64,000 nt of DNA, taken from Chlorobiota bacterium (GTDB lineage Bacteria; Bacteroidota; Ignavibacteria; OLB7). Made by a program: the position numbers and the translations under genes. The stretch spans positions 289 to 64,288 of the forward strand of contig JAEUSP010000064.1 in assembly GCA_016788565.1 (NCBI GenBank), given 5' to 3'. Below the pieces are notes generated by a model. That model had not been told where the DNA came from and made no database searches. It was given only the letters and a program-made list of their open reading frames with translations. Position 1 is the first letter of the stretch, and each line of letters opens with the position of its first letter. Shown here piece by piece: positions 1 through 34,027 of the stretch.

Positions 1-3000
1 CGACAACCAAGCATTTGAGATTCGGGTTGACAATGGAGGCACCGCCACCGAAGGCCGCCGCCGGGTGATGCGGTATGAGCCGAACGTCACCAGCGCGAAC
101 ATCATCGGTGGGTTCAACGGAAACAGCGTGACCAGCGGAGCCGTTGGCGCGGTGATTGCTGGTGGCGGAGGAAATGGGAACACAAACGTAGTGACCGATA
201 ATTATGGAGTAGTAGTTGGCGGGTTCAACAACCGCGCTGGCGATAATGCTGGGCTTACAACCAGTGCAACGCACGCAATAGTGGGGGGTGGCATGAACAA
301 CATTGCATCAGGATTCGCAGCAATGGTTGCTGGCGGTACCGATAACACAGCATCGGGCTTTACTTCGGTTGTGGGTGGTGGCAATTTCAACACTGCATCA
401 ACTGTTTCGGCAACGGTTGGTGGAGGCGCAAGCAACAATGCGTCGGCAATTTTTGGGACGGTTGCTGGCGGAAACAGCAATACCGCATCAGGAAATTATG
501 CAGCGGTAGGAGGAGGCTTAAGCAACATAGCCTCGGCAGAAGGAGCCACGGTAAGTGGTGGTGTGAACAGCGCAGCAGCGGGGATTTCTTCAACGGTAGC
601 TGGTGGCAGTACTAACGAGGCGTTGGGAGATTATGCCACGATCAGCGGTGGTGCAAACCACATAGCAACCGGAAATTCTGCGACGATTGCAGGCGGTCAG
701 GTCAATACGGCATCGGGTCAATACTCTACGGTTGGTGGTGGTCGAGACAACATGGATTCCGGCGATTACTCCACTATTGCTGGTGGTCGCGGCCTAACGT
801 TTACTCCAACTGCCGACCGCAGCTTCGGATTCCATGCCAACAACAGTGGCGGAGGGGTGCCGATGACCATCTCCGCCCCCGATGTCGCCGTCTTTGGCAA
901 CACCGATTTGTGGCTTGCCAACAACGATGGCGCAGCAAGCGAACTCCGTTTCTTTGAAGACTACAGCGGTTCTGGCGCGTTCCCCAACACCGCCAACTAC
1001 ACCGCCTTCAAGGCGCAGGCGCAAACAGGAAATATCACCTACACGCTTCCAGCCTCGGCTGCAGCAAGCAATGGTGATATTCTGACATCAACCACAGGCG
1101 GGGTGATGAGTTGGGCCGACGCAGATTCCATCGTGACCGCCAACGCATGGAGCCTAACCGGCAACAGCATCACCGGAAGCGAATTGCTGGGAACCACCAA
1201 CGCCCAAGACCTGAACATCATTGCTGGCAACACAACCCGCATCACCGTTGATGATGCAACGGGGAATGTTGGCGTTGGCGGAGCGTTCTCAGGAACCGAC
1301 AAACTGAGCGTCACCGGAAATATCAACACCAGCACGCAGTACAACATCGGCGGGGCGCGGGTGCTAAGTGTGCCGGGCACGGCTAACGCATTTGTGGGAG
1401 TGGGAGCAGGCACAGCAAACACCAGCGGCAACAACAATGCCTTTGTTGGCAACAATGCAGGCACAGCAAACACCACTGGTTTCCAGAACTCATCGCTCGG
1501 TTCAGGTGCATTGCAAAGCAACATTGGCGGTAGCACCAACTCCGCAGTTGGATATCAAGCATTGTTCAGTAATAACAGTGGCTCCAGCAACTCGGCACTT
1601 GGGGCAGTTGCCTTGCAAAACAACACTACCGGAGGGAACAACTCTGCGGTTGGTGCCAGTGCATTAGCCAACAACATTGGTGGCAGCAACAACTCAGCAG
1701 TTGGTGCAAACGCATTGCAGGCGAATACTGGCGGCAACAGCAATGCGGCCGTTGGCGCAAACGCATTGCAAGCCAACGTATCTGGGGATGGCAACGCGGC
1801 GTTGGGCGCAAACGCACTGCAAGCAAACACTGCCAGCGACAACACCGCCGTTGGCGCAAGCGCGCTAACCGCAAACACCAGCGGCGTGCGCAACACCGCC
1901 GTTGGGCGCGACGCGCTTGCCGCCACCACCACCGCGGGCGACAACACCGCCGTTGGTTATCACTCACTACAAGCATCAACTGGCGGGTTAAACACAGCGG
2001 TGGGTTCAAACGCATTGGCGGCAAACACCACCGGCACCGATAACGTTGCTGTTGGCGCAGCCGCGCTTGATGCAAACACCACTGGCATCGGCAACATTGC
2101 AATCGGCAAGGATGCGTTGGGGGCAAACATTGGCGGATCGAAGAACACCGCCGTGGGGGATAGCGCGTTGCTACGGAACACCAGCGGCTTCAGCAACACC
2201 GCCGTTGGCGACAGCGCGTTGCTGAACAACACCACCGGCCAGAACAACACCGCCGTTGGCGCGCTAACGCTGGCCAACAATGCTGGCGGGCAATCCAACA
2301 CTGCTGTTGGCGTGGGCGCGTTGCGCGCAAACACCAGCGGCATTGCCAACACCGCTGCCGGCGCAGGGGCATTGGGGGCAAACACAACATCGCTTGGCAA
2401 CACCGCTTTTGGTGTTTTGGCATTGGGAGCCACAACCACCGGGGGGGGCAATACTTCGGTTGGATTCTTTTCGCTGGCAAGCAACAGCACGGGGGCTGGC
2501 AACACCGCCGTTGGGCAAGGGGCGTTGCAATCAACCACCGCAAGCAACAGCACGGCGGTTGGTTTCCACGCATTGAACGCCAACACCACTGGCATTGCCA
2601 ACACAGCCGTTGGCGATAGCGCACTGCTACGCAACACCAGCGGCGTGCGGAACACCGCCATTGGCGATAGCGCGTTAATCAACAGCACCCAGGGCCAGGG
2701 GAACACCGCCGCTGGCGCAATGGCGCTTGCAGCCAACACCACCGGAAGCGGCAACACTGCCATGGGGGTTATGGCGCTTCAGAACGCTGCCAGCAATGTG
2801 AACACTGCGTTCGGTGCGCAAGCCGGTTTGGCCATCACAAGTGGCGGATTCAACACCTTTGTTGGATACCTTGCCAACGCAAGCAGCGGCACGCTAAACA
2901 ACGCAACTGCTATTGGCGCACAAGCGATGGTGGGCCAAAACAACAGCGTGGTGATTGGCTCCATCAACGGAGTAAACGGTGCGGCCGCCGATGCCAGCGT

Positions 3001-6000
3001 TGGCATTGGGACCACCACACCGAACTCAACCAGCCGACTGCACGTTGCTGGCACAGGTGGCACAGCCAACGTTCGGATGGGATCGCTTGGGGGCGCAGCG
3101 GTGGCAACCCCCTACTCACCCGGCGCAAACGATGGCATTGTGGTTTCCGACAACAATGGCGATTTGCTGAAACGTTCCGTTGGCAGCGTCCTGGGGGGAA
3201 GTGCTGTTCTCTACAACGTCAGCGCAACACAAAGCACCGCATCGCCACGCACTAACTACCTCTATGATGTTGCGTACGATGCAGCCGCCCCCGACGCAGC
3301 ATCAGTAGGCGCACGAATCACCTCCAACGCTGGCGCGGCGGGCAACCTGAACGCAACCGCGCTAACGCTGGTGGCAATGCCCACTGGCAGCGGCACAGCA
3401 ACGGCGCTGGAGGCAACCGGAAATATCAACACCAACACCCAATACAACATCGGCACCAACCGTGTGGTAAGCGTCTATGGAACGAACAACGTGTTTGTTG
3501 GCGTGGGCAGCGGCACGGCAAACGATAACTCCGTAACTGGCGGCACAGCCAACACCTTTGTTGGATTCAATGCCGGAACCGCAAACACCACCGGCGACAA
3601 CAACACTGCCGTTGGCAACGGCGCGCTCCACTCCAACACAACAGCGTTTGCCAACACCGCAATCGGCCAAAACGCATTGGGGGGAAACAGCACCGGCACA
3701 CTGAACACCGCTGTTGGCCTGAACTCACTACAATTGAACGTGAGCGGTAGCTCCAACACCGCCGTTGGCGTTGGCGCATTGAACAAAACAACCGTGAATG
3801 GTGGAACCGCTGTTGGGGTGAACACACTGCTGGAAAACACCACCGGCACCGACAACACCGCCGTTGGCGTTAGCGCGCTTCAGAAAAACACAATCGGCTT
3901 CAACAACGTGGCGATGGGGGTGAACACCGTGCAGAAGAACGTAGATGGCAGCAACAACACCGGCATCGGCGCAAGCGCGTTGCTGGAGAACCTCTCGGGA
4001 AGCGGCAACACTGCCGTGGGGACCTCGGCATTGCAAGCCAATTTAGCCAGCAACAACACCGCTGTGGGTTACGGCGCGCTGGATGCAAACACCACCGCAT
4101 TCAACAACACCGCCGTTGGCAAAGATGCCCTTGGCGCAACCAGCATCGGAAACTCGAACACTGCTGTTGGTGCAAGCGCGTTGGCCGTAAACATTGCAAC
4201 GGCAAACACCGCTGTGGGTTCGGCAGCACTGCGGCAGAACACCAACGGCACAAGCAACACCGCCGTTGGCGTGAACTCACTGTTCGTGAATACGGATGGC
4301 ATTAACAACACGGCAATCGGCGTTGGCGCGTTGGGGGGAAACACCTTCGGCAACAACAACACCGCTGTTGGCCTGAACTCCCTTGTTGACAACACCACCG
4401 GAACCGATAACACCGCCGTCGGTGGGGGATCGCTGGGGGATAACACCATCGGCTTCAACAACGTGGCCGTTGGCATCAACGCAATGCAGGACAACATTGA
4501 TGGCGATAACAACGTGGCCGTGGGGGTAAACGCACTGCTGAACAACACCACCGGCGGAGGAAATACCGCGCTTGGCACAGCCGCACTTCAGGCAAATAAT
4601 GCCAGCGATAACACCGCCGTTGGCTACGGCGCATTGGACGCAAACACCACCGGCACAAGCAACACCGCCGTTGGCCGCAACGCGCTTGGCGCAACCAGCA
4701 CTGGCGGATTCAACACTGCGCTTGGCACCAACGCGCTGGCAGCAAACACCGCCAACGATAACACCGCTGTTGGCTACGGCGCATTGAACCTAAACACCAC
4801 TGGCACAAGCAACACCGCCGTTGGCAGCAGCGCGCTTGGCGCAGGCGGCACTGGTGGATTCAACACAGCAGTTGGCGCAAACGCGCTGGCGGCAAACACC
4901 GCCAACGACAACACCGCCGTTGGCTACGGTGCATTGGACGCAAACACCACCGGCACAAGCAACACCGCCGTTGGCCGAAACGCGCTTGGCGCAACCAGCA
5001 CCGGCGGATCCAACACAGCGGTTGGCACCAACGCGCTGGCGGCAAACACCGCCACAGCAAACACCGCCGTTGGCGTGGGGGCATTGGAAGCAAACACCAG
5101 CGGCACAAACAACACAGCGGTTGGGGTGAACAGTCTGTGGGTAAATACCGGCGGCAACAACAACACAGCGATGGGCGTTGGCGCGTTGGGGGGGAACACC
5201 GGCGGCGATAACAACACCGCGATTGGAATAAATGCAATGGTGACCAACAGCACCGGCGACGATAACACCGCCGTTGGCGCAAGCGCGCTAACGGCCAACA
5301 CCATCGGCGTGAACAACGTGGCAATCGGCGTTCACGCAATGAATGCAAACACCGATGGCAACCGAAACACCGTCGTCGGGTCCAGCGCGCTTCTGACCAA
5401 CAGCAACGGCGACGGCAACACCGCTGTTGGCACCGAAGCATTAAAGGTTAGCACCGCCGACAACAACACTGCTGTTGGCGATGCCACCTTGCTGAGCAAC
5501 ACAAGCGGCACGGGGAACACTGCCGTTGGTGCGCGTGCACTGGGTGCAGTTACCACTGCCGGAGCCAACACTGCCGTTGGCCTTGATGCTTTGGCAGCCA
5601 ACACCGCCGCCGGAAACACCGCCGTTGGCGCAGCCGCGCTGGTGACAAACACAACCGGCACGGGGAACACCGCCGTTGGCGTGAATGCCCTGTTTGCAAA
5701 CGTCGTCGGGGCCAACAACACTGCCACTGGCGTGGGATCGTTAGGGGCTACAACGGGGGATAACAACACCGCCACTGGGCACAATGCGTTGGTGGCAAAT
5801 ACATCCGGCGACGGCAACACCGCCGTTGGAACCAGCGCGCTTTCGGCAAACACCACCAGCAGCAACGGGACAGCAGTTGGAGACAACGCACTGCTGCTGG
5901 CAACCGGTGCCGGGAACACTGCCGTTGGTTCGTTTGCTGGTGCGGCCGTTGTGTCGGGATCAAGTAACACCTTTATTGGAGTTGGCAGCAACACCACTGG

Positions 6001-6277
6001 GGGAAGCGCGGCCACATTAACGAACGCCACTGCCGTTGGCGCAAACGCCGTTGTTGGGCAAAGCAACGCAGTGGTGCTTGGCAACAGTGCCGATGTCGGC
6101 ATCGGAACCAGCACCCCACGCGCAGCACTGGATGTGGTCTCCACAGGAGCAATGATTGTTCCAGTAGGGACAACCGCCCAACGCCCCGGAACGCCGGTGC
6201 AGGGGATGATCCGATTCAACACAACCACCGTGAAGTTTGAAGGATACGACGGAACCACGTGGGTGAACCTCAACTAA
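1..6277 (+). CDS. Giant repeat surface protein, truncated at the 5' window edge (>2090 aa). It is built from ~19-20-aa 'NTAVG-x-ALxxNTxGxx' repeats and is YadA-head (Hep_Hag)-like or tail-fibre-like, so probably an adhesin
   Basis: The reading frame of the annotated GTG at 65 stays open back to base 1 with no stop. There are hundreds of periodic NTAVG/NTAIG repeat units. Two super-modules each start with '...TGNINT(S/N)TQYNIG' and end with 'VGIGT(T/S)TP...'. The C-terminus is a non-repeat domain ('GMIRFNTTTVKFEGYDGTTWVNLN'). A strong hairpin terminator follows. Confidence 0.75.
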   Translation, partial: DNQAFEIRVDNGGTATEGRRRVMRYEPNVTSANIIGGFNGNSVTSGAVGAVIAGGGGNGNTNVVTDNYGVVVGGFNNRAGDNAGLTTSATHAIVGGGMNNIASGFAAMVAGGTDNTASGFTSVVGGGNFNTASTVSATVGGGASNNASAIFGTVAGGNSNTASGNYAAVGGGLSNIASAEGATVSGGVNSAAAGISSTVAGGSTNEALGDYATISGGANHIATGNSATIAGGQVNTASGQYSTVGGGRDNMDSGDYSTIAGGRGLTFTPTADRSFGFHANNSGGGVPMTISAPDVAVFGNTDLWLANNDGAASELRFFEDYSGSGAFPNTANYTAFKAQAQTGNITYTLPASAAASNGDILTSTTGGVMSWADADSIVTANAWSLTGNSITGSELLGTTNAQDLNIIAGNTTRITVDDATGNVGVGGAFSGTDKLSVTGNINTSTQYNIGGARVLSVPGTANAFVGVGAGTANTSGNNNAFVGNNAGTANTTGFQNSSLGSGALQSNIGGSTNSAVGYQALFSNNSGSSNSALGAVALQNNTTGGNNSAVGASALANNIGGSNNSAVGANALQANTGGNSNAAVGANALQANVSGDGNAALGANALQANTASDNTAVGASALTANTSGVRNTAVGRDALAATTTAGDNTAVGYHSLQASTGGLNTAVGSNALAANTTGTDNVAVGAAALDANTTGIGNIAIGKDALGANIGGSKNTAVGDSALLRNTSGFSNTAVGDSALLNNTTGQNNTAVGALTLANNAGGQSNTAVGVGALRANTSGIANTAAGAGALGANTTSLGNTAFGVLALGATTTGGGNTSVGFFSLASNSTGAGNTAVGQGALQSTTASNSTAVGFHALNANTTGIANTAVGDSALLRNTSGVRNTAIGDSALINSTQGQGNTAAGAMALAANTTGSGNTAMGVMALQNAASNVNTAFGAQAGLAITSGGFNTFVGYLANASSGTLNNATAIGAQAMVGQNNSVVIGSINGVNGAAADASVGIGTTTPNSTSRLHVAGTGGTANVRMGSLGGAAVATPYSPGANDGIVVSDNNGDLLKRSVGSVLGGSAVLYNVSATQSTASPRTNYLYDVAYDAAAPDAASVGARITSNAGAAGNLNATALTLVAMPTGSGTATALEATGNINTNTQYNIGTNRVVSVYGTNNVFVGVGSGTANDNSVTGGTANTFVGFNAGTANTTGDNNTAVGNGALHSNTTAFANTAIGQNALGGNSTGTLNTAVGLNSLQLNVSGSSNTAVGVGALNKTTVNGGTAVGVNTLLENTTGTDNTAVGVSALQKNTIGFNNVAMGVNTVQKNVDGSNNTGIGASALLENLSGSGNTAVGTSALQANLASNNTAVGYGALDANTTAFNNTAVGKDALGATSIGNSNTAVGASALAVNIATANTAVGSAALRQNTNGTSNTAVGVNSLFVNTDGINNTAIGVGALGGNTFGNNNTAVGLNSLVDNTTGTDNTAVGGGSLGDNTIGFNNVAVGINAMQDNIDGDNNVAVGVNALLNNTTGGGNTALGTAALQANNASDNTAVGYGALDANTTGTSNTAVGRNALGATSTGGFNTALGTNALAANTANDNTAVGYGALNLNTTGTSNTAVGSSALGAGGTGGFNTAVGANALAANTANDNTAVGYGALDANTTGTSNTAVGRNALGATSTGGSNTAVGTNALAANTATANTAVGVGALEANTSGTNNTAVGVNSLWVNTGGNNNTAMGVGALGGNTGGDNNTAIGINAMVTNSTGDDNTAVGASALTANTIGVNNVAIGVHAMNANTDGNRNTVVGSSALLTNSNGDGNTAVGTEALKVSTADNNTAVGDATLLSNTSGTGNTAVGARALGAVTTAGANTAVGLDALAANTAAGNTAVGAAALVTNTTGTGNTAVGVNALFANVVGANNTATGVGSLGATTGDNNTATGHNALVANTSGDGNTAVGTSALSANTTSSNGTAVGDNALLLATGAGNTAVGSFAGAAVVSGSSNTFIGVGSNTTGGSAATLTNATAVGANAVVGQSNAVVLGNSADVGIGTSTPRAALDVVSTGAMIVPVGTTAQRPGTPVQGMIRFNTTTVKFEGYDGTTWVNLN

Positions 6278-6309
6278 AAATTCAGTCCACCCAAAACGGA
6301 ACAACACCA

Positions 6310-6347
6310 AACGCCCTGCCGGTTTCCGGCAGGGCGTTTGAGTTTTG
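6310..6347 (+). terminator. Rho-independent terminator after the giant repeat gene
   Basis: The stem 'cgccctgccgg' pairs with 'ccggcagggcg' across a 'ttt' loop and is followed by 'tttgagttttgtgtt'. Confidence 0.6.
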
Positions 6348-6384
6348 TGTTGGGAACGCACAGAGTAAGGGCTGATAGATTCGC

Positions 6385-6450
6385 GATTCGGTGGCTCCGC
6401 TTCATACTTCGACGGAGCTCAGCATGAGCGGAGGGCTGGATTCGGAGGTT
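6385..6450 (+). repeat. Dispersed ~55-bp hairpin element (module C: 'ttcggtggctccgCTCATACTTCGACGGaGCTCAGCATGAGCGGag'), copy 1
   Basis: The same element recurs at 6626-6690 (+), 18185-18235 (-), 36105-36172 (-) and 41073-41135 (+) with more than 85% identity. It has internal inverted arms 'ccgctcat' and 'atgagcgg'. Confidence 0.8.
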
Positions 6451-6625
6451 GGCGCAGGAGGATTTTTCGGAACTCACCCCCCCCCGTCATTGCGAGGAGT
6501 CTTCGACGAAGCACCGCGAAGCAGCGGCGCAAGCCCATCTCGCGGGTTTCTGAGAGAGTATCGGACACACTGCCAGCCGCGAGATCGCCACGTCGCTATC
6601 GCTCCTCGCGATAACGATTCTTCGC

Positions 6626-6800
6626 CGTTCGGAGGCTCACGCTCATACTTCGACGAAGCTCAGCATGAGCGGAGAGCCGGATTCGTGGTGTAGCGGTCAT
6701 TGGTCATTAGTTATTTCGTGAGTTCCCGGCTCCATCTCCATCTCACTCTTCCCATCTCACTCTTCAATCTTCGCTTCGGCCCCCTCTCCCACCCGCCGAA
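6626..6800 (+). repeat. Composite intergenic element: module C copy 2, then a 'GTCATTGGTCATTAG' heptamer-type run (module A), then a 'CTCACTCTTC' run (module B)
   Basis: Direct sequence match to the modules at 21.69 kb, 36.0-36.3 kb and 40.96-41.27 kb. It lies in the long leader upstream of deaD. Confidence 0.7.
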
Positions 6801-6894
6801 AGTGAGGCAACCAGCTCTATCACATATTTGGGAGAGGGCGGGGGGTGAGGGCAGGCAGCGGCGGCGGCATCCGCTGAAAACTCTATCACTCTCT

Positions 6895-6970
6895 TCTATT
6901 CGACACTCGGCATTCGACATTCGGCATTCCAACCATTTGCCATTTGACATTCGGCATTTGACATTTCTTG
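6895..6970 (+). repeat. Degenerate tandem 'CATT(C/T)GACATTCGGCATT' repeat just upstream of the deaD start
   Basis: The sequence 'ttcgacactcggcattcgacattcggcattcc..ccatttgacattcggcatttgacatttc' shares the 'catttgacattcggc' core with the 94-bp tandem unit at 21.7-22.1 kb. Confidence 0.65.
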
Positions 6971-6995
6971 CGGGGATTCTCCGTAACATGAACCC

Positions 6996-8807
6996 ATGAA
7001 GAACAACCACACGCCAGAAACCGCAACCGAAGCAACCGATTCTTTCGCTGAAATCGGGCTGAGTCTTCCGCTGGTTCAAACGCTTACCGAGCTTGGCTAC
7101 GAAACCCCAACCCCTATCCAGCAGCAATCAATCCCGCTGCTTCTTTCCGGCAAGGACCTGATCGGCCAAGCCCAAACCGGAACCGGAAAAACTGCCGCCT
7201 TCTCACTGCCAATCCTTGACCGCTTGGACCTTAGCCGTGGCGCGTTGCAAGCGTTGATCCTGACCCCAACTCGCGAGCTGGCCATTCAAGTTTCGGAGGC
7301 AATCCACACCTACTCGCGGCATCTTGGCCGCATCCGCGTCACGCCGATTTATGGCGGCGACTCTATCCAGAAACAGATCGTCCGGCTGCGCGGGCCGATG
7401 CACGTTGTGGTTGGCACGCCCGGGCGAATTATGGATCACCTTCGGCGCGGCACACTCACCTTCAGCGCGCTCCGTTTTGTGGTGCTGGACGAAGCCGACG
7501 AGATGCTCCGCATGGGCTTCCTTGACGACGTTGAGTGGATACTTGGCCAAGCCCCAGCCGAGCGGCAAACCGCACTGTTCAGCGCCACCATGCCGCGCGA
7601 AGTCCGCCGCATCAGCGAACGCTACTTGAACCAACCAACATCGGTGGAGATCACCCACAAAACGCTGACGGTCCCTTCGGTGGAGCAGTTCTACTTCCAC
7701 GTTACCGAAAAGCAAAAGCTGAATGTGCTGACCCAACTGTTGGACACCCGCGACAGCGATGCCGAGGCGATGCTGATCTTCACCCGAACAAAAATTGGCG
7801 CGGCAGACCTCACCGAAAAACTTCAAGCACGCGGCTACGAAGCCGAGGCGATGCACGGCGGAATGAGCCAATCGCAGCGGGAAAGTGTGGTGCGCCGGAT
7901 GCGTGCCGGGCAGATTGAAATTGTGGTGGCCACCGACGTTGCCGCGCGTGGGTTGGATATTGAGCAGATTGGGTTGGTGGTGAACTACGACATCCCCGGC
8001 GACCCCGAAGTCTATGTTCACCGGATTGGCCGCACCGGGCGCGCCGGGCGTTCGGGAACCGCGTTCCTGTTCGTCACCCCGCGCGAGGAACGGCTGATGC
8101 GGGAAATCGAACGCTACACCGGGCAGCGGCTTGTTCCCAAAAAAGTCCCTTCCCGCGCCGACGTTGCCGCCCGCCGAATGGCCCTGTTCAAAGAGCGGTT
8201 GCTGAAAGCGTTGGGGGAGGAAGACCTAGACCCGTATCTCACACTGGTGGAGGAACTTGCCGAAGAGAGCGGGCGGGAATTAGCCGAGATTGCCGCCGCC
8301 GCCGCACGGTTAGCGCAAGGAGAAAAACCGATCATGGTTTCGGTTGAGCCAGAACCGCAGAATGTTCCGGGGGCCGAGCGGGGAATGGCACGGTTGTTTA
8401 TCAATGCCGGGCGCAGCGCGGGAATTGGGCCGTCGGATATTGTTGGGGCAATTGCCAACGAGGCTGGGATTCCCGGGCGCGACATTGGGGTGATTGATAT
8501 TTATGATGATTTCACGTTTGTGGAGGTTCCGGCTCACCACCGCAATCAAGTGCTGGAATCGCTGGCGGGTGCCACCATCCGCAACCGCGAAACCAATATC
8601 CGCCCAGCAACCGAGCATGATCTGAAGCCACGTCGAACGTTCAATAACAACGTTGCCGACAAACCAAAAAGGAGAGAGGAGCGGAGAACCGAGGACACTT
8701 CTGGCGGCTGGTACGAGGACATCCCCCGTAAACGGAAAGGAGCAAAACCAATAGCTGCGCACAAAAATGAAAAGCGGAAAAAAGTTGGGGGGAAGAAGCG
8801 GAGATAA
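6996..8807 (+). CDS. deaD: DEAD-box ATP-dependent RNA helicase with a C-terminal DbpA RNA-binding domain and a basic tail (DeaD/CsdA-like)
   Basis: It has the Q-motif, motif I 'AQTGTGKT', 'PTRELA', 'DEAD', 'SAT' and 'HRIGRTGRAG'. The C-terminus carries a DbpA-like domain ('ARLFINAGRSAGIGPSDIVGAIANEAGI') followed by a K/R-rich tail. Confidence 0.9.
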   Translation: MKNNHTPETATEATDSFAEIGLSLPLVQTLTELGYETPTPIQQQSIPLLLSGKDLIGQAQTGTGKTAAFSLPILDRLDLSRGALQALILTPTRELAIQVSEAIHTYSRHLGRIRVTPIYGGDSIQKQIVRLRGPMHVVVGTPGRIMDHLRRGTLTFSALRFVVLDEADEMLRMGFLDDVEWILGQAPAERQTALFSATMPREVRRISERYLNQPTSVEITHKTLTVPSVEQFYFHVTEKQKLNVLTQLLDTRDSDAEAMLIFTRTKIGAADLTEKLQARGYEAEAMHGGMSQSQRESVVRRMRAGQIEIVVATDVAARGLDIEQIGLVVNYDIPGDPEVYVHRIGRTGRAGRSGTAFLFVTPREERLMREIERYTGQRLVPKKVPSRADVAARRMALFKERLLKALGEEDLDPYLTLVEELAEESGRELAEIAAAAARLAQGEKPIMVSVEPEPQNVPGAERGMARLFINAGRSAGIGPSDIVGAIANEAGIPGRDIGVIDIYDDFTFVEVPAHHRNQVLESLAGATIRNRETNIRPATEHDLKPRRTFNNNVADKPKRREERRTEDTSGGWYEDIPRKRKGAKPIAAHKNEKRKKVGGKKRR

Positions 8808-8942
8808 AAAACAACGCCGTATTTGAACGATGCGCTTTGTAAAAGCACCTAAAATAGAGTTGTTCCGGAATAGAGACTCTGACATCACGGAGCCTTGTAG
8901 TTACTGGATTCGCGACTACGGAAAATTTATTCTGGAGCAACT

Positions 8943-9881
8943 CTAATTCACCCAATGTCTTCCTAAAACAACCTTTATTCCGAACTGGTATTGTTTCCAA
9001 TTAGTTTTTGGTATCGTTGAGGTAAAGGGAAAAGAGAGAAAAATTTCTCCCCCACTTATTGCTCCTATATATGCAGTATTCCACCCTAATGAGAGTACAC
9101 AGTTGTAGCGATTTTTGTTCGACTCCTGAAACTCTGTTTCGGTGTCAAATTGAATTGTGTCGGCATTATTGTGATATCTAACCCCATCGTTTTCATTTGC
9201 AATATGAACGAATTGGGATTTCCTGCTTGAAAGCAAATGCTTAGAATCTAATTGAATACCCACATAATAACAAGATGAAATTGATAAAATCTTTGAATTA
9301 AAAAACACTCCATAGACAGGGATAAGAAACCCAATACTTCCTGAGATGAATTTCTCATTTAGATTCAACACATTTACCTCTTTAATTGATCCTATTCTAC
9401 CTGAGTAGAGCAGGTAGGATCGAGTTGTATCAAGTGAGAATAGCATACTTTCTTGATGTTGGAATCCGCCGCCAACAAGAATGATTCCAATTGGAATTTG
9501 CTGCCGAAAAGCAATTCCTACTTCCCAATAGGAAGTTGTTGGAAAATCTGAATTTTTAAATCTTCCGTTAGGTGTAGTAATAAGTTTTTGTTGATCTTGA
9601 TAAGGATTATTTGATGAGAATGCCATTGTAGTTGGGTGAAACGAATTTGCCCGGATAGCATCAGCACAATCAATAACATCACCTCCCGAGAACCAAAACA
9701 GCAATGATTGGGCAGGATCAGGAGCCGGGAACCATCCATGGGAATAATGATCAATAGTATCCGTAAATTGATATTTCTTTGCTTCTTCGTCAATATTTTG
9801 CCATAAAGAATCAATAGACTGCGCATAAGCATCAGATAAAATCACGATGCAGGATAGGAAAAATAATAGATGTATTTGCAT
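8943..9881 (-). CDS. Hypothetical secreted protein encoded in an AT-rich island
   Basis: It has an N-terminal signal peptide (MQIHLLFFLSCIVILSDAYAQ). Local GC is roughly 35%, against about 60% in the flanks. I recognised no conserved domain. Confidence 0.55.
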   Translation of the reverse strand: MQIHLLFFLSCIVILSDAYAQSIDSLWQNIDEEAKKYQFTDTIDHYSHGWFPAPDPAQSLLFWFSGGDVIDCADAIRANSFHPTTMAFSSNNPYQDQQKLITTPNGRFKNSDFPTTSYWEVGIAFRQQIPIGIILVGGGFQHQESMLFSLDTTRSYLLYSGRIGSIKEVNVLNLNEKFISGSIGFLIPVYGVFFNSKILSISSCYYVGIQLDSKHLLSSRKSQFVHIANENDGVRYHNNADTIQFDTETEFQESNKNRYNCVLSLGWNTAYIGAISGGEIFLSFPFTSTIPKTNWKQYQFGIKVVLGRHWVN

Positions 9882-9996
9882 GGTAGCTTATATAAAACTA
9901 TGGCCGTTAGTTAATTAACAGCCATAGTTTGTCTTAAAGTTTATTCAAAAATACTCATATCTAGTTTATATGCAACATACAAGATAGACATTCTGT

Positions 9997-10593
9997 CTAA
10001 ACAACTAATTTGCCGATAGAGTATGTAAATAGGGATGATAGAGCTCCAAATACAACTCCTTGTCCAACTACCTCCCAGCCTGTTAATCCTTCGTCTATAG
10101 CAAGGGCTACTCCAACCGTAACTCCGACAACATCACCAACTGCAACCCCTATAATTGACATATCAGCAGGTGGATAATAATTTGGAGTACTATCACGCCA
10201 GTATTCGCTGCTTCCAAGTGCAACATTGCTAATCACTTTAAAAACAGAATTAACGACATTACTATCAATAGCAGCCGAATCATGGATTGTTTTAATTTGG
10301 GCAGCAAATACTGATAGATTTGTTGTCCCTCGTTCCCAATGATCAGTTGATGAATTATAATAATTATCAAAAACAGAAGCATATTGATATAGGTATGATT
10401 TTTCAGTTGAATTAATCAATCCTTGTGTCAAGAAGCTATCAGCAAATCGTCGGAACTGATTTGGCGATCTTAATTTCTCACCTGAATTTATAGCCGCATT
10501 TAATTGCGAATCCAAAAAATAATTGTGCCAAGCACCAGCTTGATCCAAGCCTTGTTGTGAAAAAAGGCTTCCAGACGGTTTTGGGTAGCTCAT
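9997..10593 (-). CDS. Hypothetical protein with C-terminal glycine-zipper hydrophobic helices. It could be a membrane-active bacteriocin or toxin-like protein; encoded in an AT-rich island
   Basis: There is no signal peptide. The C-terminus reads 'IIGVAVGDVVGVTVGVALA...GWEVVGQGVVFGALSSLF', giving GxxxGxxxGxxxG motifs. It is co-oriented with the gene at 8943..9881. Confidence 0.5.
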   Translation of the reverse strand: MSYPKPSGSLFSQQGLDQAGAWHNYFLDSQLNAAINSGEKLRSPNQFRRFADSFLTQGLINSTEKSYLYQYASVFDNYYNSSTDHWERGTTNLSVFAAQIKTIHDSAAIDSNVVNSVFKVISNVALGSSEYWRDSTPNYYPPADMSIIGVAVGDVVGVTVGVALAIDEGLTGWEVVGQGVVFGALSSLFTYSIGKLVV

Positions 10594-11028
10594 GACGTGT
10601 CTCCTTATGTAGGTCTATTGATGTTTTTCTCAACAATGTTGAGTTGTTTTTTTTCTCTTGCAAATTTTCTCATCTTCTCCATTTTCATTGGAGCAACTAG
10701 AACAATGAGAGAAATATCCCCCTCTTTGTTTTACTCTAGGGGGCTGTGCGGTTTATCTTCCGGTTGTAGTTAGAAGACCCTTTGCTTCATCAAACCCTAC
10801 CCGTGAAAGCTATCGCCCCGTTATAGTATATAACACCACTTTGCTCTGAACGGTCACATTAATTTTCTGTAATGAAGCATCGGGTTGACGATCTGTTATT
10901 GTCAGAATGTTCATTGCTCCGTAAGACGCTTCCCCCCGCTCCGTAAGACCTGGCGGCTACCTTGAATGGAGTTCAATGCAATTCCGCATTGCCAAACCAG
11001 ATATTCAAACCTAGCCGAACAACTAACT

Positions 11029-12300
11029 ATGAACCAGACAACATTACGAAGCACACGCCGCCGCCGTTGGGGGCTTCACCACTTGATCTATCTACTGATG
11101 CTGGCCGTTGCGGCCTTGCACGCCGGGGGCTGCACCCCCACACCAAGCGCGCCGGAAGGAGAAGATTCCTTTGATGTGGTCAACATCGCCGTGTGGGATG
11201 GGGCCTGGAAGGACCCGCAGGTAAAAGCACACAACTTCTTTGGCGGATTGGGCGCGGTTCGGTGCATCCGCCAGTCGCCAGTGAACCCGAATGACCTGTT
11301 GATTGCCGGGAATTTTGGCTTTTTTGAGCATGTTGCAAATAACAATTGGGAGGATGGGAAGGTTAATGGGCTTGTCCTGCTTTCATTACGCGCCGGGTTC
11401 CGTCCGCTTGAGCAAGAGGGGCGCGACCAGAGCACAGCTAATTTCTACACCGCCGAGTTCACCACCGTGAACGTCCCCTACTACTATGCTGGCGGGGTTG
11501 TCACTATGCCGTACCCGGGCAACGATACCGTCACCGGTGCCGGGCGGTTTGCTGATGATGAGCGGTATTGGAGTCAGTTCAATCCCGAATTCCCGCTGGT
11601 TGGCAACGTCTATGCAATGGCGCGGCAGGGGAACACACTCTTCATCGGTGGCGATTTTGCATCCCCCGGGATGATGGAAAACTCCGGCGCGCTTCTCCAG
11701 TATGACCTTGTCTCGCAACAACTGAGCAGCATGGCCACGGGGTATAGTGCTCCGCCTACCTACACGGCTGTTCGGGCACTGGAAGCCGATGGAAACGGGG
11801 TGATAGCTGGAGGGCTGTTTTATCAGATGGGTGGGGTCACGGTCAACAATATCGCCCGCTGGAACGGCAGCAGTTGGGAGGCAATCGGGGATGGAATCCA
11901 GGGGACAGTGTATGATATTATCCGGCACAACGGCACGCTCTACATCGCCGGGATGTTCTACCCCAGCGGCTACGATGGCTACGGAATTTGCGCCCGCTGG
12001 GATGGCAGCACATGGAAGCTGGTTGGCCCCGTGTTCCAGCACGGAAGCGATTACGGAAATGAGGGCTACGCGCTGGCATCGTTCCAGGGGAAGCTGATTA
12101 TTGGGGGGCATTTCAGAAAACTTGGCGGAGTAACCGTGAACAACATTGCGCAGTTATCGCAGTCGGGGAATACGTGGGAACCGCTGGCCGGAGGGGGCAT
12201 TCAAGGCCCTGATGTCGAGGAAGAGCGGGTAAACACTTTGTGCGTTGTCAGCGACCGTTTGTACATCGGTGGGACATTCGATAAGGCGCGTGTTCAGTAG
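11029..12300 (+). CDS. Beta-propeller repeat lipoprotein (delta-60-type repeats)
   Basis: Repeated 'GG.F..(M/L)GGVTVNNIA(R/Q)W(N/D)GS.WE..G.G' units. The likely start is the ATG at 11029, which gives a signal/lipobox-like N-terminus (LMLAVAALHAGGC). The ORF in the track starts at 10966. Confidence 0.55.
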   Translation: MNQTTLRSTRRRRWGLHHLIYLLMLAVAALHAGGCTPTPSAPEGEDSFDVVNIAVWDGAWKDPQVKAHNFFGGLGAVRCIRQSPVNPNDLLIAGNFGFFEHVANNNWEDGKVNGLVLLSLRAGFRPLEQEGRDQSTANFYTAEFTTVNVPYYYAGGVVTMPYPGNDTVTGAGRFADDERYWSQFNPEFPLVGNVYAMARQGNTLFIGGDFASPGMMENSGALLQYDLVSQQLSSMATGYSAPPTYTAVRALEADGNGVIAGGLFYQMGGVTVNNIARWNGSSWEAIGDGIQGTVYDIIRHNGTLYIAGMFYPSGYDGYGICARWDGSTWKLVGPVFQHGSDYGNEGYALASFQGKLIIGGHFRKLGGVTVNNIAQLSQSGNTWEPLAGGGIQGPDVEEERVNTLCVVSDRLYIGGTFDKARVQ

Positions 12301-20003: not shown

Positions 20004-21599
20004 TTACTTCCCCCCCGCCACTGGCTGGCGATTGGCCGGATCAAACGGATTGATTGGCATTGGTGTGGAAGCTGTGATGATCCAGATAGCTGAAACTTGC
20101 CGCTCCTTCGCATCATTCGCTAACACTTCTGCAGATAGGTGAGCTTCCCGCAACATCGTTCCGGTGATTGTTGCGCCGTTTCCGCCGCTGGCGGCAAGGG
20201 TGATGCTTCCCTGACCTGCCGGAATTGCAACGTCGCGCAGCCGATAAACGTGATGCCGCTTGCCAAGCTCGGTTGTGGCCAGCACCTCCAGATCAACCGT
20301 GATCGGTTTGCTGGGGTTCTCAACGGTCAAGGTCGGATGCGCCGTTCCCAGCCCTGCAAACCGTAGCCGTGCGGTTGCGCCACCTTCGCGGCAATCCACC
20401 CTGACGTATCCTTCCGGCCCACCAATCGCCATCCCGGCTCCATCCGTTCCCGAATTGAACTCCATTTCTGCCGAGGGCATCGCGCCGCTGTAGAAATATC
20501 CTTCAAACCGCTCCGGCATTTGCGCCGGAACATTCCCGAAGTTGAACCAGGGACTCACCTTCCCAAGCCCGGTGGCCGGGTTCCAATCAATCTGCTTGGT
20601 TCCTTCAACAAACAAGTGGCGACCATTGCCATCGCGAAGCTGAGTGATGCCAACATCGCGGCTTCCCCCTTTGCCCCAAATGAAGACTTTCAGCAGGAGT
20701 GTGGGAAGGCTAAGGCCCATCGAGGAAGGGGTGCGGCCGGTGGGGCCGGCAACCGAAAGTGGAAGCACTACCAGATGCCCTTCGCCAAGCGGGCTTCCGG
20801 CAACGCCATCATCGCCATCGGTTGGCCAGGGGGACATTTTTCCCGCCATCAGGAAGCTCCAGTTGGAGCCGCTGCGTTGGATGAAATTGCTTTGGCTAGT
20901 GTACCACCCCCGGTGGTTTGCGGAAGTATCGGCCCAGATTCGGTTGGGATCCACCACCCAGATTTTTTCGTTGCCCGGGCTTCCGGTAACGTCGTAGGCA
21001 ATCATCGTGTGGCCGCCTTCCTGCGGGTTCCACCCTTTGGTGACGCACACCAGATACGGGCCTTCGCGGCCAATAGTCTCGCGCGAGAGTGTCACCCCGT
21101 AGCTGGCATCTTGCGAGTGGCCCGAGTGTGCTTGCTCGATGTACTCTTGAATGCACGCCAGCGATAATTGGTGGCCGTGCATGATGTTGATTGCAGTGTT
21201 CAAATCGGGATCGCTGGGGCCTGGCCCCGAGCCTGAGCCAACGTATTTGATTGGCGGCGCGCAGTAGCCCAAGTAGCCGCCATACTTGTCCATCATCAGG
21301 CTAAGGCAGCTCATCCCGTAGCAGTTTCCTGCCCCGTTCCCTGTCCCGCCGGGGTCGGGAAGTGTGGTTTTGAACGCGGCTTCGTAGAATAGCTTGTCGA
21401 ACGTGGCCGACAACCAGGAACCGTTGGAATCGGGGGGGATGCCGTAGTAGCTGCGGGCGTAGATATGCCAGCCGAACATCGGCGTGGTGTAATTCTCGAA
21501 GCCCCAGCCGTACCTCTCGGCCGCATGCTGCGCGTTCCCCGCAATCGAAGCCACCAGCAGCAGTGCTGCCGAGCAGGATAGTATGCGTGGTATTATCAT
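20004..21599 (-). CDS. Secreted protein with a papain-like (C1/transglutaminase-like) Cys/His catalytic-core signature; putative cysteine peptidase
   Basis: Signal peptide (MIIPRILSCSAALLLVASIAGNAQ). 'GAGNCYGMSCLSLM' is a nucleophile-Cys-like motif and 'GGHTMIAYDV' a His-like motif. Confidence 0.4.
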   Translation of the reverse strand: MIIPRILSCSAALLLVASIAGNAQHAAERYGWGFENYTTPMFGWHIYARSYYGIPPDSNGSWLSATFDKLFYEAAFKTTLPDPGGTGNGAGNCYGMSCLSLMMDKYGGYLGYCAPPIKYVGSGSGPGPSDPDLNTAINIMHGHQLSLACIQEYIEQAHSGHSQDASYGVTLSRETIGREGPYLVCVTKGWNPQEGGHTMIAYDVTGSPGNEKIWVVDPNRIWADTSANHRGWYTSQSNFIQRSGSNWSFLMAGKMSPWPTDGDDGVAGSPLGEGHLVVLPLSVAGPTGRTPSSMGLSLPTLLLKVFIWGKGGSRDVGITQLRDGNGRHLFVEGTKQIDWNPATGLGKVSPWFNFGNVPAQMPERFEGYFYSGAMPSAEMEFNSGTDGAGMAIGGPEGYVRVDCREGGATARLRFAGLGTAHPTLTVENPSKPITVDLEVLATTELGKRHHVYRLRDVAIPAGQGSITLAASGGNGATITGTMLREAHLSAEVLANDAKERQVSAIWIITASTPMPINPFDPANRQPVAGGK

Positions 21600-24627: not shown

Positions 24628-27600
24628 TCAGTGCATGTAGAATCCATCGGTTCGGTTGTAGCCGCAGGTGATATCTACGCTGCCGCAGAGCACCCAAAGC
24701 ACACACCCTTCCAGGCCAATCGTCCCTTCAAACGCCGGCGGGATGGCCCCGGTGAACTGCAAGTTCCCCCAAGCCGCCGCGCTGACAAGCCCACCAAGAA
24801 TTTCCCCCCAAATCCGCACGCCAACGTTCCCAACAAAGTACGGGAAGGCAAGCCCGGGGACTGATGTCCCGCCGATGAACGGGGAATCGTGGACGAACGC
24901 CCCTATGCCGACGTACAACTGGAATCCACCGGAAGCAAGGAAATAGAAACTGACGGAAGCCTCAACATTCAGGAATGCGTAGAACCCGGTAAGCCGCCCT
25001 GGCAAGCCACCTTTGTTCAGGCCAAACCGCCCGTTGATTCCATCCATCACCCACACCCGTTCTTTGGGAACGTTGTGGCCAAAGAAAATTCCGGTTTGCG
25101 CGCCAAGCCCCCCCAAGTATCCCCAAATCCTGACGGCCACCCGCCCCTGCACCGACTGGTAGTCGGTCCCCAAATGCCAATCGAACTCACCCTCACCTTC
25201 CACTCCCGCAATCACCGCCCCCAAATTGACCGTTCCCCGGAAGTAGCCTTCGGCAAAAATTTCTTCGCCACGCTCAACGGTGAACGATGCCAGCCCGGTG
25301 ACCTCAAGATCAACCGCGCCAACGTTCACGAACATTGCGCCGTTGGCCTCCATCACAAACCGGGTGGGTGAGTAGCTCATAATCATGCTGACCATGTTCC
25401 CACCACGCGCGGCAATGCTGAAGCCAATCCCCAGGCTGCTGGAGATTTCCCCGCCAAGCGCAATTTTTTCCAGCGATTCCCCCACAATGCAGCCGCACCC
25501 CCAGATATTCCCCATTGCCGACATCTGCGCCACCGGGCCAAGCGCAAAAGTGTGCGCGCTTTCCTCCATCACCCGGAAGCAAATCCCTTCGGCGGCGATG
25601 TCAATGGTGGAGTACATCCCGCCGGTGATGTTGAACAGGCTGACCTCCCCCGCTCCGAAAAATCCGTCCTGGCGATCCACGTGGTAGCGGATGCTGTCGT
25701 ACTCCAAGTTGGCGATTCCATCACCCCAGTTCCGTTGCCATTCCAGCTGGCTGGGGGGCGCGCCCATGTAGGTGGTGTCCAGCACCCGCACGTAGCGTCC
25801 GTTGAACGGGTTGTTCAGCTTGGCCGACTTGTAGTCAACGATGGAAAGCCGTTTGGAGCCGAAGAAGTTGATGGCCACCGAGCCATACGCCAAAATGTGG
25901 CCGCTGTCGCTGGGGATGTACGGCGAGAGTTTTACCAGTTCGGGCGAGAATCCAAACCGGTCGAACTTCTGGCCGACGCTGTTGTAGTCGAACGCCAACC
26001 GCCCCATGTTTCCGCTGGCTTTCATCTCACCCCAAACCAAGTAGAACGGTTTTGCGAAGTGGCGCGGCTCGTTGAACCCAGCCGCCGTCAGGTAGATCAC
26101 CCCCAGCTTCACGCAAAGGATTCCCGCCGATTTTGTTGGGTCCTTCGGGACCAAACCAACGCCCCAGTAGGCCATGGTGTCCGGCTGCGAAAGATCTACC
26201 TGGCCACCAGCACACTCGGCGGTGGAGGTGAACATCATCTGCTTGAACGCAATCTCGGCATCAACCGGCATCGGCAGCTTCACCGACCCCATCAGCTCGC
26301 TGTACCACATCGCACTTTCCACAAACTGAAGCCGAACCAGCTTGTTGGTCTGGTCTTTCTTTTTGGGGTCGAACCCAAAGGTGGTTTTGAACGGAGCTTC
26401 GCCGGCGTAGGCGGGTCCGGTTTCCCACACTGGCCCCATCTCCACTTCCCCCATCCTATCTTTCTGCAGGCGGAGGAGTACCTCGGTATGCACACCGGTT
26501 CGGGCAACGTTCATCCAAATTTTCACAACGGTTTCGGCGGGGAACTTCAGTCCGTCGGTTGGGTTTGGGCGGTCGCGCGTGGCAATCATCAGCGGCACGT
26601 TGGCGATGCTGGGGATTGTCACCCCTTGCAGTCGCTGGGTTTCCAGCTGGGCGGTTGCCGGGGCAAACAGTGGCGTGGTAAAGGTGGTGTCGGCCAGTGG
26701 GTAGAACGGCGGCATCCACCGCGCACCCAAGTAAAAATGGGCGGGGACATCGGTGGATGATCCGGTAATCAAGTAGTAGCGTTTTGGGCTGCTGGGCTTG
26801 TTGCTGTACTCACCCCAGGCCAGATTATCCTTCACCGTCAAGTCCGCAAACTGGTCCTGGTCGGCTTGGATTTTTAGCGTGATGTTGTGCACATCTACAC
26901 GGTTCATGCTGCTTTCCGCAGTGCTGATTGCCACGCGCGGAAGCCGCATACTGACGTTGTTGAACTCACCATTCTCGATAGCACTTTTTGCCACGCGAAG
27001 GTAGCCGCCACCGGTTAGGTTAATCTGGTAGCCGAATGGGTCCAGCGCGTGATAGACAAACGCTCCCCCCATGTTCATCCGCGCCGCAAACCCGCTTCCG
27101 GTAATCAGCCCGTTGACGAACGTGTATTTCGCCTGCACATATCCCCGATTGCTGATAACTGAGTCGGAAGGGGAATCGGGTGTGGTTCCGGCGTTCAGCA
27201 CCACCCCTTTCCAGGATGCTGCCAACGGCGGCATTGGCCCGGCGGGGGATTGCGCTGCGGAGAAATCCACGGTGTAGCCTTTCCCATAAACAAGCAACCC
27301 GGTTTCGCCGATATGCCACCGCCCGTAGTCGGCACTGGCAATTTCTTGGTAGAACTCACAGGTGGAGGTGATGGTGGTGGTTGGGAACGGGACCCGCGCA
27401 CGGGTGCAGGTGTCGTTGCTGATGATGCTGGTTGGCAGCAACACCGCCCCTTTCACGCTGGCCGATGCTGGGCGAATAATCAGCGAATCAATGGCAAGCG
27501 TGAACGCGCTGTCCAGCGTGATTTCCGCTGGCGGGGTTGGGATTGGTGAGGAGGATGGATAGATGGCGATGCCGTCGGTCAGCACCTCGGTCCGCTGCGT

Positions 27601-33945: not shown

Positions 33946-34027
33946 GGTAGTTGGGTAGCTAATCATCATTTCATTGTTGGTTGTTGGTGAGTTGGGAAGC
34001 CCAATTGCTAAACGGCAAACCTTCCCT

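Follow-up and report, generated by a model that had tools for sequence, protein, structure and literature searches.

The stretch of DNA analysed here, hereafter the window, is 64,000 nt long and opens inside a giant gene, genuine and represented by its 3′ part, whose product consists almost wholly of repeats, as the first-pass annotation of this DNA had described and our repeat analysis of the 2091-aa product bears out. The frame is open from nt 2 and ends in a stop codon at 6275–6277; it continues past the window start, and the 5′ end thus lies outside the window. The features of the gene and its 3′ flank are the following, P0026 being a relative discussed below.

2–6277, forward strand: 3′ part of the giant fibre gene (2091 codons plus stop), an uninterrupted ORF in frame 2
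2–253, forward strand: aa 1–84, end of a linker ('TTDNQAFEIRVDNGG...RVMRYEPN') and entry to the second head array; no family match
254–790, forward strand: aa 85–263, 14-aa repeat array of ~12 units (xxSTVxGGxxNxAS), of YadA/UspA1-head type by PDB 3pr7 and Pfam matches
791–1288, forward strand: aa 264–429, non-repeat linker domain of ~170 aa ('SFGF...LRFFE...ITYTLPASAAASNGDILTSTTGGVMSW...AWSLTGNS...TRITVDDATGNVGVGG'), with motifs also in P0026
1289–3022, forward strand: super-module 1, aa 430–1007 (~578 aa), a header and a tail enclosing an array of ~28 units (17 aa each); matches to PHROG 23837, 6002 and 4636
3023–3388, forward strand: inter-module spacer, aa 1008–1129, 122 aa without repeats ('RLHVAGTGGTANVRMGSLGG...GIVVSDNNGDLLKRS...'), homologous to P0026 aa 712–765
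3389–6118, forward strand: super-module 2, aa 1130–2039 (~910 aa), a header and a tail enclosing an array of ~50 units (17 aa each), from repeat and motif analysis
4601–5124, forward strand: 150-nt tandem super-repeat (50 aa = 16+17+17), 3.5 copies with 86% matches (TRF)
6089–6274, forward strand: PTL_trimer (PF26696) module, aa 2030–2091, 'VGIGTSTPRAALDVVSTGAMIVPVGTTAQRPGTPVQGMIRFNTTTVKFEGYDGTTWVNLN', from PHROG, homologues and AF2
6308–6340, forward strand: terminator-like hairpin with a 15-bp perfect stem, a 3-nt loop and a T-rich tail

Several observations establish the gene as real. A stop-free frame of 6.2 kb cannot be the work of chance, the gene is intact in two assemblies, and the hairpin begins 31 nt past the stop codon. 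Protein-level homologues score above 1000 bits. The internal ORFs, which had been set aside at first sight as spurious by-products of repeat DNA, number ~20 at ≥80 aa, all antisense or in other frames, the longest reaching 313 aa. Beyond the hairpin the genes are of the housekeeping type (deaD, dapF, one resembling tonB and one for phytoene synthase), and Rfam recorded no RNA family in nt 1–12000. Elsewhere in the window (31447–34179) there is a gene for a T9SS substrate carrying Por_Secre_tail (PF18962).

A second assembly (contig L001) carries the same gene at 99.5% identity and runs 914 nt (305 aa) further upstream, as the suggestion that the gene continues beyond the window would have it. 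This extension is only more of the same fibre gene: its translation places 'AWSLTGNSSTNPATNFLGT' directly before aa 1 of the window product, and it includes a DNA copy of the linker aa 264–429 at 95.6% identity. Taken together, the two assemblies give a protein of >2,396 aa. The proposal to obtain the full gene from upstream sequence was thereby advanced by 305 aa, short of a start codon. The 5′ end and N-terminus were found neither in the window, nor in L001, nor in any assembly collection searched. A neighbour-gene look-up gave this one contig as reaching further upstream; genome contigs searched with DeaD included no same-species genome (best 69% identity), metagenomes searched with the upstream 366 aa held relatives only, all at ≤55% identity, and an exact look-up of the partial proteins gave no match. 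Within the tandem super-repeat, L001 is shorter by exactly 300 nt, which is two 150-nt units and in frame; outside this difference the two assemblies agree at every gene position. The first-pass annotation had proposed to look for strain-to-strain variation in repeat number; this difference may reflect such variation in the population or a collapse of the repeat in assembly.

The large internal duplication reported earlier is present, in the form of two homologous super-modules bearing the header and tail motifs first quoted for them. In super-module 1 the header is TGNINTSTQYNIGGARVLSV... and the tail ...NNATAIGAQAMVGQNNSVVIGS...VGIGTTTP; between the two super-modules, headers are identical at 49 of 76 residues (64%) and tails at 37 of 77 (48%). 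Two details of that description required revision. Both super-modules had been put at ~900 aa, which fits the second (~910 aa) and not the first (~578 aa), and a repeat period of 19–20 aa had been given, whereas the spacings between NTAVG anchors are 17 aa in 52 cases, 16 aa in 11 and 19–20 aa in none. The consensus unit is accordingly NTAVGxxALxANTTGxx, with a minor 16-aa variant. The first ~440 aa, passed over in the earlier description, have a separate architecture of 14-aa repeats followed by the ~170-aa linker.

The likeness to YadA heads that had been seen in the NTAVG repeats belongs instead to the 14-aa array. Residues 89–263 match the UspA1 head (PDB 3pr7) at E=3.2e-17, and a Pfam scan of the fragment returned UspA1_rep (4.5e-7) and LbR_Ice_bind (3.4e-7). 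These two families, both on the 14-aa array, were the only matches in the fragment Pfam scan, while whole-protein scans with Pfam and NCBIfam gave none; the linker aa 264–429 had no Pfam or PHROG match, and the spacer aa 1008–1129 no family match in the fragment scan. For the 17-aa array we found no Pfam family and no PDB sequence relative, and an hhalign comparison with the 14-aa array was negative, showing no profile similarity (probability 0.1). An AF2 monomer of aa 1487–1720 folds as one beta-solenoid turn per 17 aa (pLDDT 72); for the repeats, pLDDT was <50 in a first model and ~72 in a second. Structural neighbours of the protein include tailspikes.

The final 60 aa had been singled out as a distinct domain of tail-fibre type, and both parts of that judgement held. 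The last ~40 aa are modelled by AF2 as a three-stranded sheet at pLDDT ~96, ~25 PHROG families match the module (best 6e-16), and phage genes annotated as tail fibres or tail spikes contain it; with aa 43–95 of a T4-like cyanophage protein from a tail-fibre cluster it shares 65% identity, and it matches the Gp49 C-terminus (PDB 9d83) at E=2.5e-4. The assignment to PF26696 was made via homologues, the Pfam fragment scan itself having reported no PF26696 here: close homologues of the C-terminal fragment carry precomputed PF26696, P0026, with the same C-terminus, is listed as PF26696:PTL_trimer, and a profile built from PF26696-carrying relatives scores aa 1985–2090 at 129.8 bits. PF26696 is very common (101,513 cluster representatives), and by sequence the last ~60 aa are a copy of this common module as opposed to a specialised tip. 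In structure searches the module gave weak matches, every one of them to a trimeric phage spike or a collagen trimerisation domain. Mtd is among the fold matches, and a diversity-generating-retroelement target was considered and rejected, the match being a 37-residue beta element at E>1. A search of the literature on 9D83 and PF26696 found nothing relevant. Pfam scans of the whole protein and of fragments contained neither a Peptidase_S74 chaperone (PF13884) nor a T9SS sorting domain (Por_Secre_tail, PF18962), and the available 2091 aa hold no outer-membrane anchor or other secretion signal that we could find.

Although a novel adhesin had been suggested, hundreds of homologues exist: of the candidates that were scored, 517 reach E≤1e-3, the best of them with >1000 bits. 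They are proteins of 1,200–3,400 aa from Kapaibacteria, Ignavibacteria and Chlorobi MAGs, with signal peptides and interchangeable C-termini, and some bear names such as 'beta strand repeat-containing protein' and 'tail fiber domain-containing protein'. The fibre shares the features of this family, namely NTAVGxxALxxNTTGxx arrays and common header, tail and linker motifs. Judged by sequence it is a member of a large, already catalogued and experimentally unstudied family, and is not new as a kind. Its closest relatives, P0026 (1927 aa) and P0001 (3352 aa), are full-length, carry signal peptides, begin with a PTL_trimer-like module and are encoded by single genes that lie next to pheT/rny and suf/ldh. 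Both resemble the window fibre in the 17-aa repeat, the header (TGN[IV]NT.TQYNIGG.RV) and the tail, spacer and linker motifs, and differ in the number and order of modules. P0026 also shares its C-terminal PTL_trimer end (46–48% identity over aligned blocks) and departs from it in having short arrays and other beta-rich regions; P0001 has another C-terminal tip. In most of the remaining members the C-terminus is an S74, T9SS or different domain, examples being P0002 (S74 chaperone) and P0083 (T9SS sorting domain), while P0073 contains PF05658 YadA_head.

These associations extend to viruses. Phages of Pelagibacter, Roseobacter, Methylophilales, Prochlorococcus, Flavobacterium and Bacillus carry the 17-aa array, at 38–49% identity, in genes annotated as tail fibres or spikes. 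Phage fibre and spike proteins with the shared modules include PHROG 4636, 6002 and 23837, the tail fibres of Pelagibacter phage HTVC111P/112P, and cyanophage Syn33_042 and its relatives, and the PTL_trimer module is shared at 65% identity. In the phage proteins, however, the arrays are far shorter, PTL_trimer usually sits near the N-terminus (profile positions ~30–80 of 300–460 aa) as opposed to the C-terminus, and the genes lie in phage structural clusters, whereas the fibre gene is chromosomal. The first-pass annotation had wavered between a fibrous adhesin and a contractile-system fibre; a fibrous adhesin with a tail-fibre-like end is the better direction, the parts being present in tail fibre and spike genes, and the housekeeping genes downstream and beside the two closest relatives lend a contractile system no support.

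On balance, we regard the protein as probably a very long, Sec-exported and homotrimeric surface fibre, an adhesin, of an uncultured FCB-group bacterium of Chlorobi/Kapaibacteria type. Export is suggested by signal peptides, which are seen only in the full-length relatives. A cellular rather than viral origin is indicated by these signal peptides and the stand-alone position of P0026 and P0001, by the swapping of C-termini and by the T9SS substrate elsewhere in the window. A trimeric state would agree with the UspA1 head match, the arrays shared with phage fibres, and a PTL_trimer module whose structural matches are trimeric spikes and collagen; surface location and adhesive role are likewise predictions. 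The fibre would be a chain of interchangeable modules, with at least two 14-aa arrays of UspA1/YadA-head type, each followed by a ~170-aa linker, and two 17-aa beta-solenoid arrays that may total ~78 turns, or ~35–40 nm at 4.8 Å per turn. The C-terminal PTL_trimer (~60 aa) would lock or nucleate the trimer at the distal end in the manner of a foldon, and the fibre, projecting from the cell, would attach to other cells, to polysaccharides or to surfaces. Gain or loss of repeat units would alter its length. The best reading is of a chimeric surface fibre; an autotransporter it is not, and the present evidence does not make it a phage gene. For this locus, what the analysis yields is chiefly a clean annotation in these terms.

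Four other readings deserve mention. Firstly, the protein might be a non-adhesive structural or matrix component (S-layer-like, a sheath, a fibre of the biofilm matrix, or a beta-roll surface that binds ice or minerals), as could be suggested by LbR_Ice_bind (grass antifreeze beta-roll), which matches the 14-aa array and also homologues, together with an end that holds a trimerisation-type module and no recognisable ligand-binding tip domain. We think this rather unlikely: such matches reflect generic beta-solenoid geometry, and the swapping of tip domains in the family, along with parts common to receptor-binding phage fibres, points to recognition or adhesion.

Secondly, the gene could belong to a prophage, tailocin or contractile injection system and encode its tail fibre or receptor-binding fibre, with the remaining genes of that system upstream of the window. 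Annotated phage fibre and spike genes, including a cyanophage tail-fibre cluster, contain the 17-aa array as well as the C-terminal module, the structural neighbours are tailspikes, and our view of the locus covers the downstream side and 914 nt more of the gene, so that phage genes could stand further upstream. What makes this improbable is the 3′ flank, with its terminator followed by deaD, dapF, tonB-like and phytoene synthase genes, and the isolation of the closest full-length relatives among housekeeping genes, equipped with signal peptides that virion proteins do not need. Moreover, at >2,396 aa the fibre is far above most tail fibres in size, and the upstream extension in L001 is still the same gene.

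Thirdly, one could suspect a pseudogene in decay, or repeat DNA joined into a chimera during assembly: a start codon has not been recovered, most short-read contigs end beside the gene (L002–L006 start 157 nt before deaD) and the tandem repeat is 300 nt longer in one assembly than in the other. We hold this to be very improbable, given that the frame is clean in two independent assemblies, with none of the frameshifts or stops that would mark a pseudogene, that the indel is in frame and amounts to exactly two repeat units, with the remaining gene positions identical in both, and that the architecture of header, tail, spacer and C-terminus is kept in P0026 and P0001.

Finally, notwithstanding the UspA1 head and UspA1_rep matches (the 14-aa array being homologous to the Moraxella UspA1 head and YadA-like heads) and the YadA_head of P0073, a type Vc trimeric autotransporter adhesin with YadA-like head repeats is scarcely credible, since such proteins have a membrane anchor, neck and coiled-coil stalk, whereas the fibre's dominant 17-aa array has no detectable sequence relation to those heads, its C-terminus is PTL_trimer and matches no YadA_anchor beta-barrel (Pfam, whole protein and C-terminal fragments, E≤10), Pfam scans of the whole protein and fragments gave no YadA_stalk or neck, AF2 segments are beta structure only with no visible coiled-coil stalk, the C-termini of relatives are S74, T9SS or further soluble domains, and the stop at 6275 is the same in both assemblies with the terminator-like hairpin after it.

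A conceptual parallel to the chimeric surface fibre is offered by the MAT (mosaic adhesive trimer) fibres of Bdellovibrio bacteriovorus, which are cell-encoded and phage-like, carry a signal peptide, fall into S74 and non-S74 subfamilies with swappable C-terminal ends, and pair intertwined beta-prism stalks with an N-terminal domain of ~130 aa that is conserved among them (PMC10769870; PDB 8OML, 8OL4). Both groups are long, cell-encoded and phage-like, divide into S74 and non-S74 subfamilies, and exchange their C-termini; the signal peptide has its counterpart in the relatives of our fibre. Both also contain a '...GNVGIGTxxP' motif, of which 'NVGIGTxxP' is all that aligns, at marginal significance (8oml and 8ol4, E=0.012 and 0.33). 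The fibre differs in a stalk of 14-aa and 17-aa solenoid arrays instead of a beta-prism, in relatives that begin with PTL_trimer, and in a host that, unlike Bdellovibrio, is not a known predator. It is a speculative and rather doubtful extension that the NTAVGxxALxANTTGxx array may represent an uncharacterised class of beta-solenoid stalk, and the protein a MAT-like fibre for recognising partners or prey. If true, fibre length would be tuned through gain and loss of repeat units.

Giant repeat fibres of the present kind are common in FCB-group bacteria of sludge, sediment and mat communities, and none has been studied. Structures for the PTL_trimer module and the 17-aa array would give annotation to >100,000 protein clusters. 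Exchangeable parts in common with phage tail fibres fit a traffic of modules between phages and cellular adhesins; the 17-aa array is itself common to the tail fibres of abundant marine phages and to the giant fibres that Kapaibacteria and Ignavibacteria encode in their own genomes.

The giant gene at the start of the window is real, and its first-pass annotation was mostly right, requiring correction as to the repeat period, the sizes of the modules and the part which resembles YadA. The gene is open in frame 2 of the + strand from nucleotide 2 to a TAA at 6275-6277 (2091 codons), and is followed at 6996 by a DEAD-box helicase gene (deaD). A metagenomic contig, L001, carries a deaD identical to that of the window and the same giant fibre gene, which there reaches 914 nt further 5' and still lacks a start codon. 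The gene thus continues beyond the window start, as had been proposed, and encodes no fewer than 2,396 residues. Other ORFs of 80 aa or more, some 20 in number and reaching 313 aa, occur antisense or in other frames within the gene, in agreement with the suggestion that its repeat DNA generates long antisense ORFs; homologue and family searches were run, and matches found, with the frame-2 product only. The features of the gene and its product are as follows.

Nucleotides 6308-6340, + strand: terminator-like hairpin, 15-bp perfect stem with T-rich tail, 31 nt past the stop
Nucleotides 4601-5124, fibre gene: 150-nt repeat (50 aa = 16+17+17), 3.5 copies, 86% matches
Residues 1-84: linker end and entry to head array
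Residues 85-263: head array, ~12 repeats of 14 aa (xxSTVxGGxxNxAS)
Residues 264-429: non-repeat linker, SFGF...LRFFE...ITYTLP...GDILTSTTGGVMSW...AWSLTGNS...TRITVDDATGNVGVGG
Residues 430-1007: super-module 1 (header, ~28 units, tail)
Residues 1008-1129: non-repeat spacer
Residues 1130-2039: super-module 2 (header, ~50 units, tail)
Residues 2030-2091: C-terminal module, overlapping the tail end of super-module 2

The likeness to YadA heads belongs to the 14-aa array. The head of Moraxella UspA1 (3pr7, crystal-structure sequence) matches this array with E=3.2e-17, the sole match in a PDB sequence search with the whole fibre protein, and the array as an isolated fragment matches UspA1_rep and LbR_Ice_bind in Pfam. 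Upstream in L001 lies an earlier head-plus-linker copy, the two linkers being 95.6% identical at the DNA level. The NTAVG array shows no such likeness: no Pfam or NCBIfam model matched it, fragments at E<=10 included, and hhalign detected no relationship of this array to the 14-aa one (probability 0.1). Its unit, NTAVGxxALxANTTGxx, is of 17 aa and not the 19-20 aa previously given, as 52 anchor-motif spacings are of 17, 11 are of 16 and none is of 19-20. The two super-modules do represent a duplication, although they are not of ~900 aa each and differ in size; with 49 of 76 header residues and 37 of 77 tail residues shared, the duplication is old.

Both the 17-aa array and the C-terminal module have counterparts in phages. 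PHROGs 23837, 6002 and 4636 (virion structural, tail spike) match the array at E ~1e-150, and tblastn matches to it, of 38-49% identity, fall in genes annotated as tail fibre or spike in phages of Pelagibacter, Roseobacter, Methylophilales, Prochlorococcus and Flavobacterium and in SPO1-like Bacillus phages; judged by such matches, the array is widespread. The last ~60 residues match some 25 PHROG families (best 6e-16), usually at positions ~30-80 of phage proteins of 300-460 aa and of unknown function, as well as within proteins whose annotation is tail fibre, baseplate wedge or virion structural protein. T4-like cyanophage proteins are 65% identical to the module by tblastn (e.g. Syn33_042, residues 43-95, whose gene has a tail fibre gene on one side and, on the other, a gp38-like gene for tail-fibre assembly). 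The module corresponds to Pfam PF26696, 'PTL_trimer', an assignment made via short metagenomic homologues which carry that annotation, the local Pfam scan of the fibre protein having not reported it. Its profile matched 101,513 of 1.84 billion cluster representatives at E<=1e-3, among them giant proteins with 10-50 copies, and in the PDB the C-terminus of phage Gp49 (9d83, E=2.5e-4) and, weakly, two Bdellovibrio mosaic adhesive trimer (MAT) fibres via an NVGIGTxxP motif. AF2 predicts a three-stranded sheet for the last ~40 residues (pLDDT ~96); the weak matches of this model in Foldseek, namely CBA120 tailspikes 3 and 4, Mtd, and the trimerisation domains of collagens XV and XVIII, are without exception trimeric. 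On the basis of these PHROG, profile-search, AF2 and Foldseek results, the terminal domain is indeed distinct; it is, however, not a specialised receptor-binding tip but a trimer-associated module that occurs very commonly.

The fibre protein adds a new member to a large family which has been catalogued but not characterised by experiment, with 517 homologues among the scored candidates. The top homologues are of 1,200-3,400 aa, and derive from MAGs labelled Kapaibacterium, Ignavibacteria, Chlorobi or Bacteroidetes; where a name is given, it is 'beta strand repeat-containing protein' or 'tail fiber domain-containing protein'. Full-length homologues begin with signal peptides and end in interchangeable C-terminal domains (an S74 chaperone with a coiled coil, a T9SS sorting domain, several unknown beta domains). 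The module header is shared by the closest full-length relatives, P0026 (1927 aa) and P0001 (3352 aa), alone. Among the top 120 homologues only P0026 has the PTL_trimer C-terminus, and in P0026 and Bacteroidota-type proteins the module is also placed directly behind the signal peptide.

The best-supported reading is of a predicted secreted, probably trimeric, chimeric surface fibre, whose modules are in circulation among phage tail fibres as well. Its design is analogous to that of the Bdellovibrio MAT fibres, which are located on the cell surface, have exchangeable tips and fall into S74 and non-S74 subfamilies (PMC10769870). The gene is unlikely to be of phage or contractile-system origin, given its downstream neighbours and the surroundings of its relatives: deaD, dapF, a tonB-like gene, a phytoene synthase gene and glycosyltransferase genes lie downstream in the window, exact copies of the downstream proteins being labelled 'Chlorobi bacterium' at NCBI, and the genes of P0026 and P0001 stand isolated amid housekeeping genes, pheT and rny in the one case, suf and ldh in the other. 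An ordinary trimeric autotransporter was rejected because the defining anchor was looked for and is absent. The S74 and T9SS C-terminal domains are both absent from the fibre protein as well.

Over the fibre gene, L001 agrees with the window at all positions except around the tandem 150-nt repeat, the only recent DNA-level repeat in the gene, where L001 lacks exactly 300 nt, or two units. Repeat number, for which the first-pass annotation had proposed a strain-to-strain check, differs between these assemblies; the difference may be genuine variation in the population or may stem from collapse of the repeat during short-read assembly.

Several further observations concern the remainder of the window, with the following features among them.

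Nucleotides 6380-6444, 6621-6685, 36115-36141 (-) and 41096-41122 (+), intergenic: dispersed element of ~65 nt with core CTTCGACGRRGCTCAGCATGAGCGGAG
Nucleotides 31447-34179: T9SS cargo gene (T9SS sorting domain)

The dispersed element, with four copies against none expected in shuffles, resembles a repeat of the REP or MITE type, and two copies sit between the fibre gene and deaD. This spacer (6278-6995) is unusually long at 719 nt; its two ~100-aa ORFs (6391-6693, 6700-6999) have no Pfam match and are probably non-coding, and Rfam returned no family in nucleotides 1-12000. L001 7332-7623, equivalent to window 6718-6855 upstream of deaD, contains a tandem duplication that adds 154 nt, made up of 138 nt and a junction of 16 nt, and four other short-read contigs (L002, L003, L005, L006) start 157 nt before deaD, within the same stretch, so the spacer seems polymorphic or hard to assemble. 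A tandem 7/14-nt repeat at 6898-6965 (ATTCGAC / ATTCGACATTCGGC, ~9 or ~5 copies) lies ~30 nt 5' of the deaD start codon. An otherwise syntenic contig, L004 (ENA ERZ27258552 k141_670468), is without the hypothetical genes at 8943-9881 and 9997-10593 (both -), which lie in a region of low GC (0.45-0.49) between deaD and a Rax2-like beta-propeller gene; their absence is a strain-level indel. Lastly, large ORFs without a Pfam match at 24628-29496 (-), 20004-21599 (-), 29650-31389 (-) and 36428-38401 (+), of 1622, 531, 579 and 657 aa, adjoin genes for beta-helix/fn3 proteins, one of them the T9SS cargo gene, with which they may form a cluster of secreted proteins.
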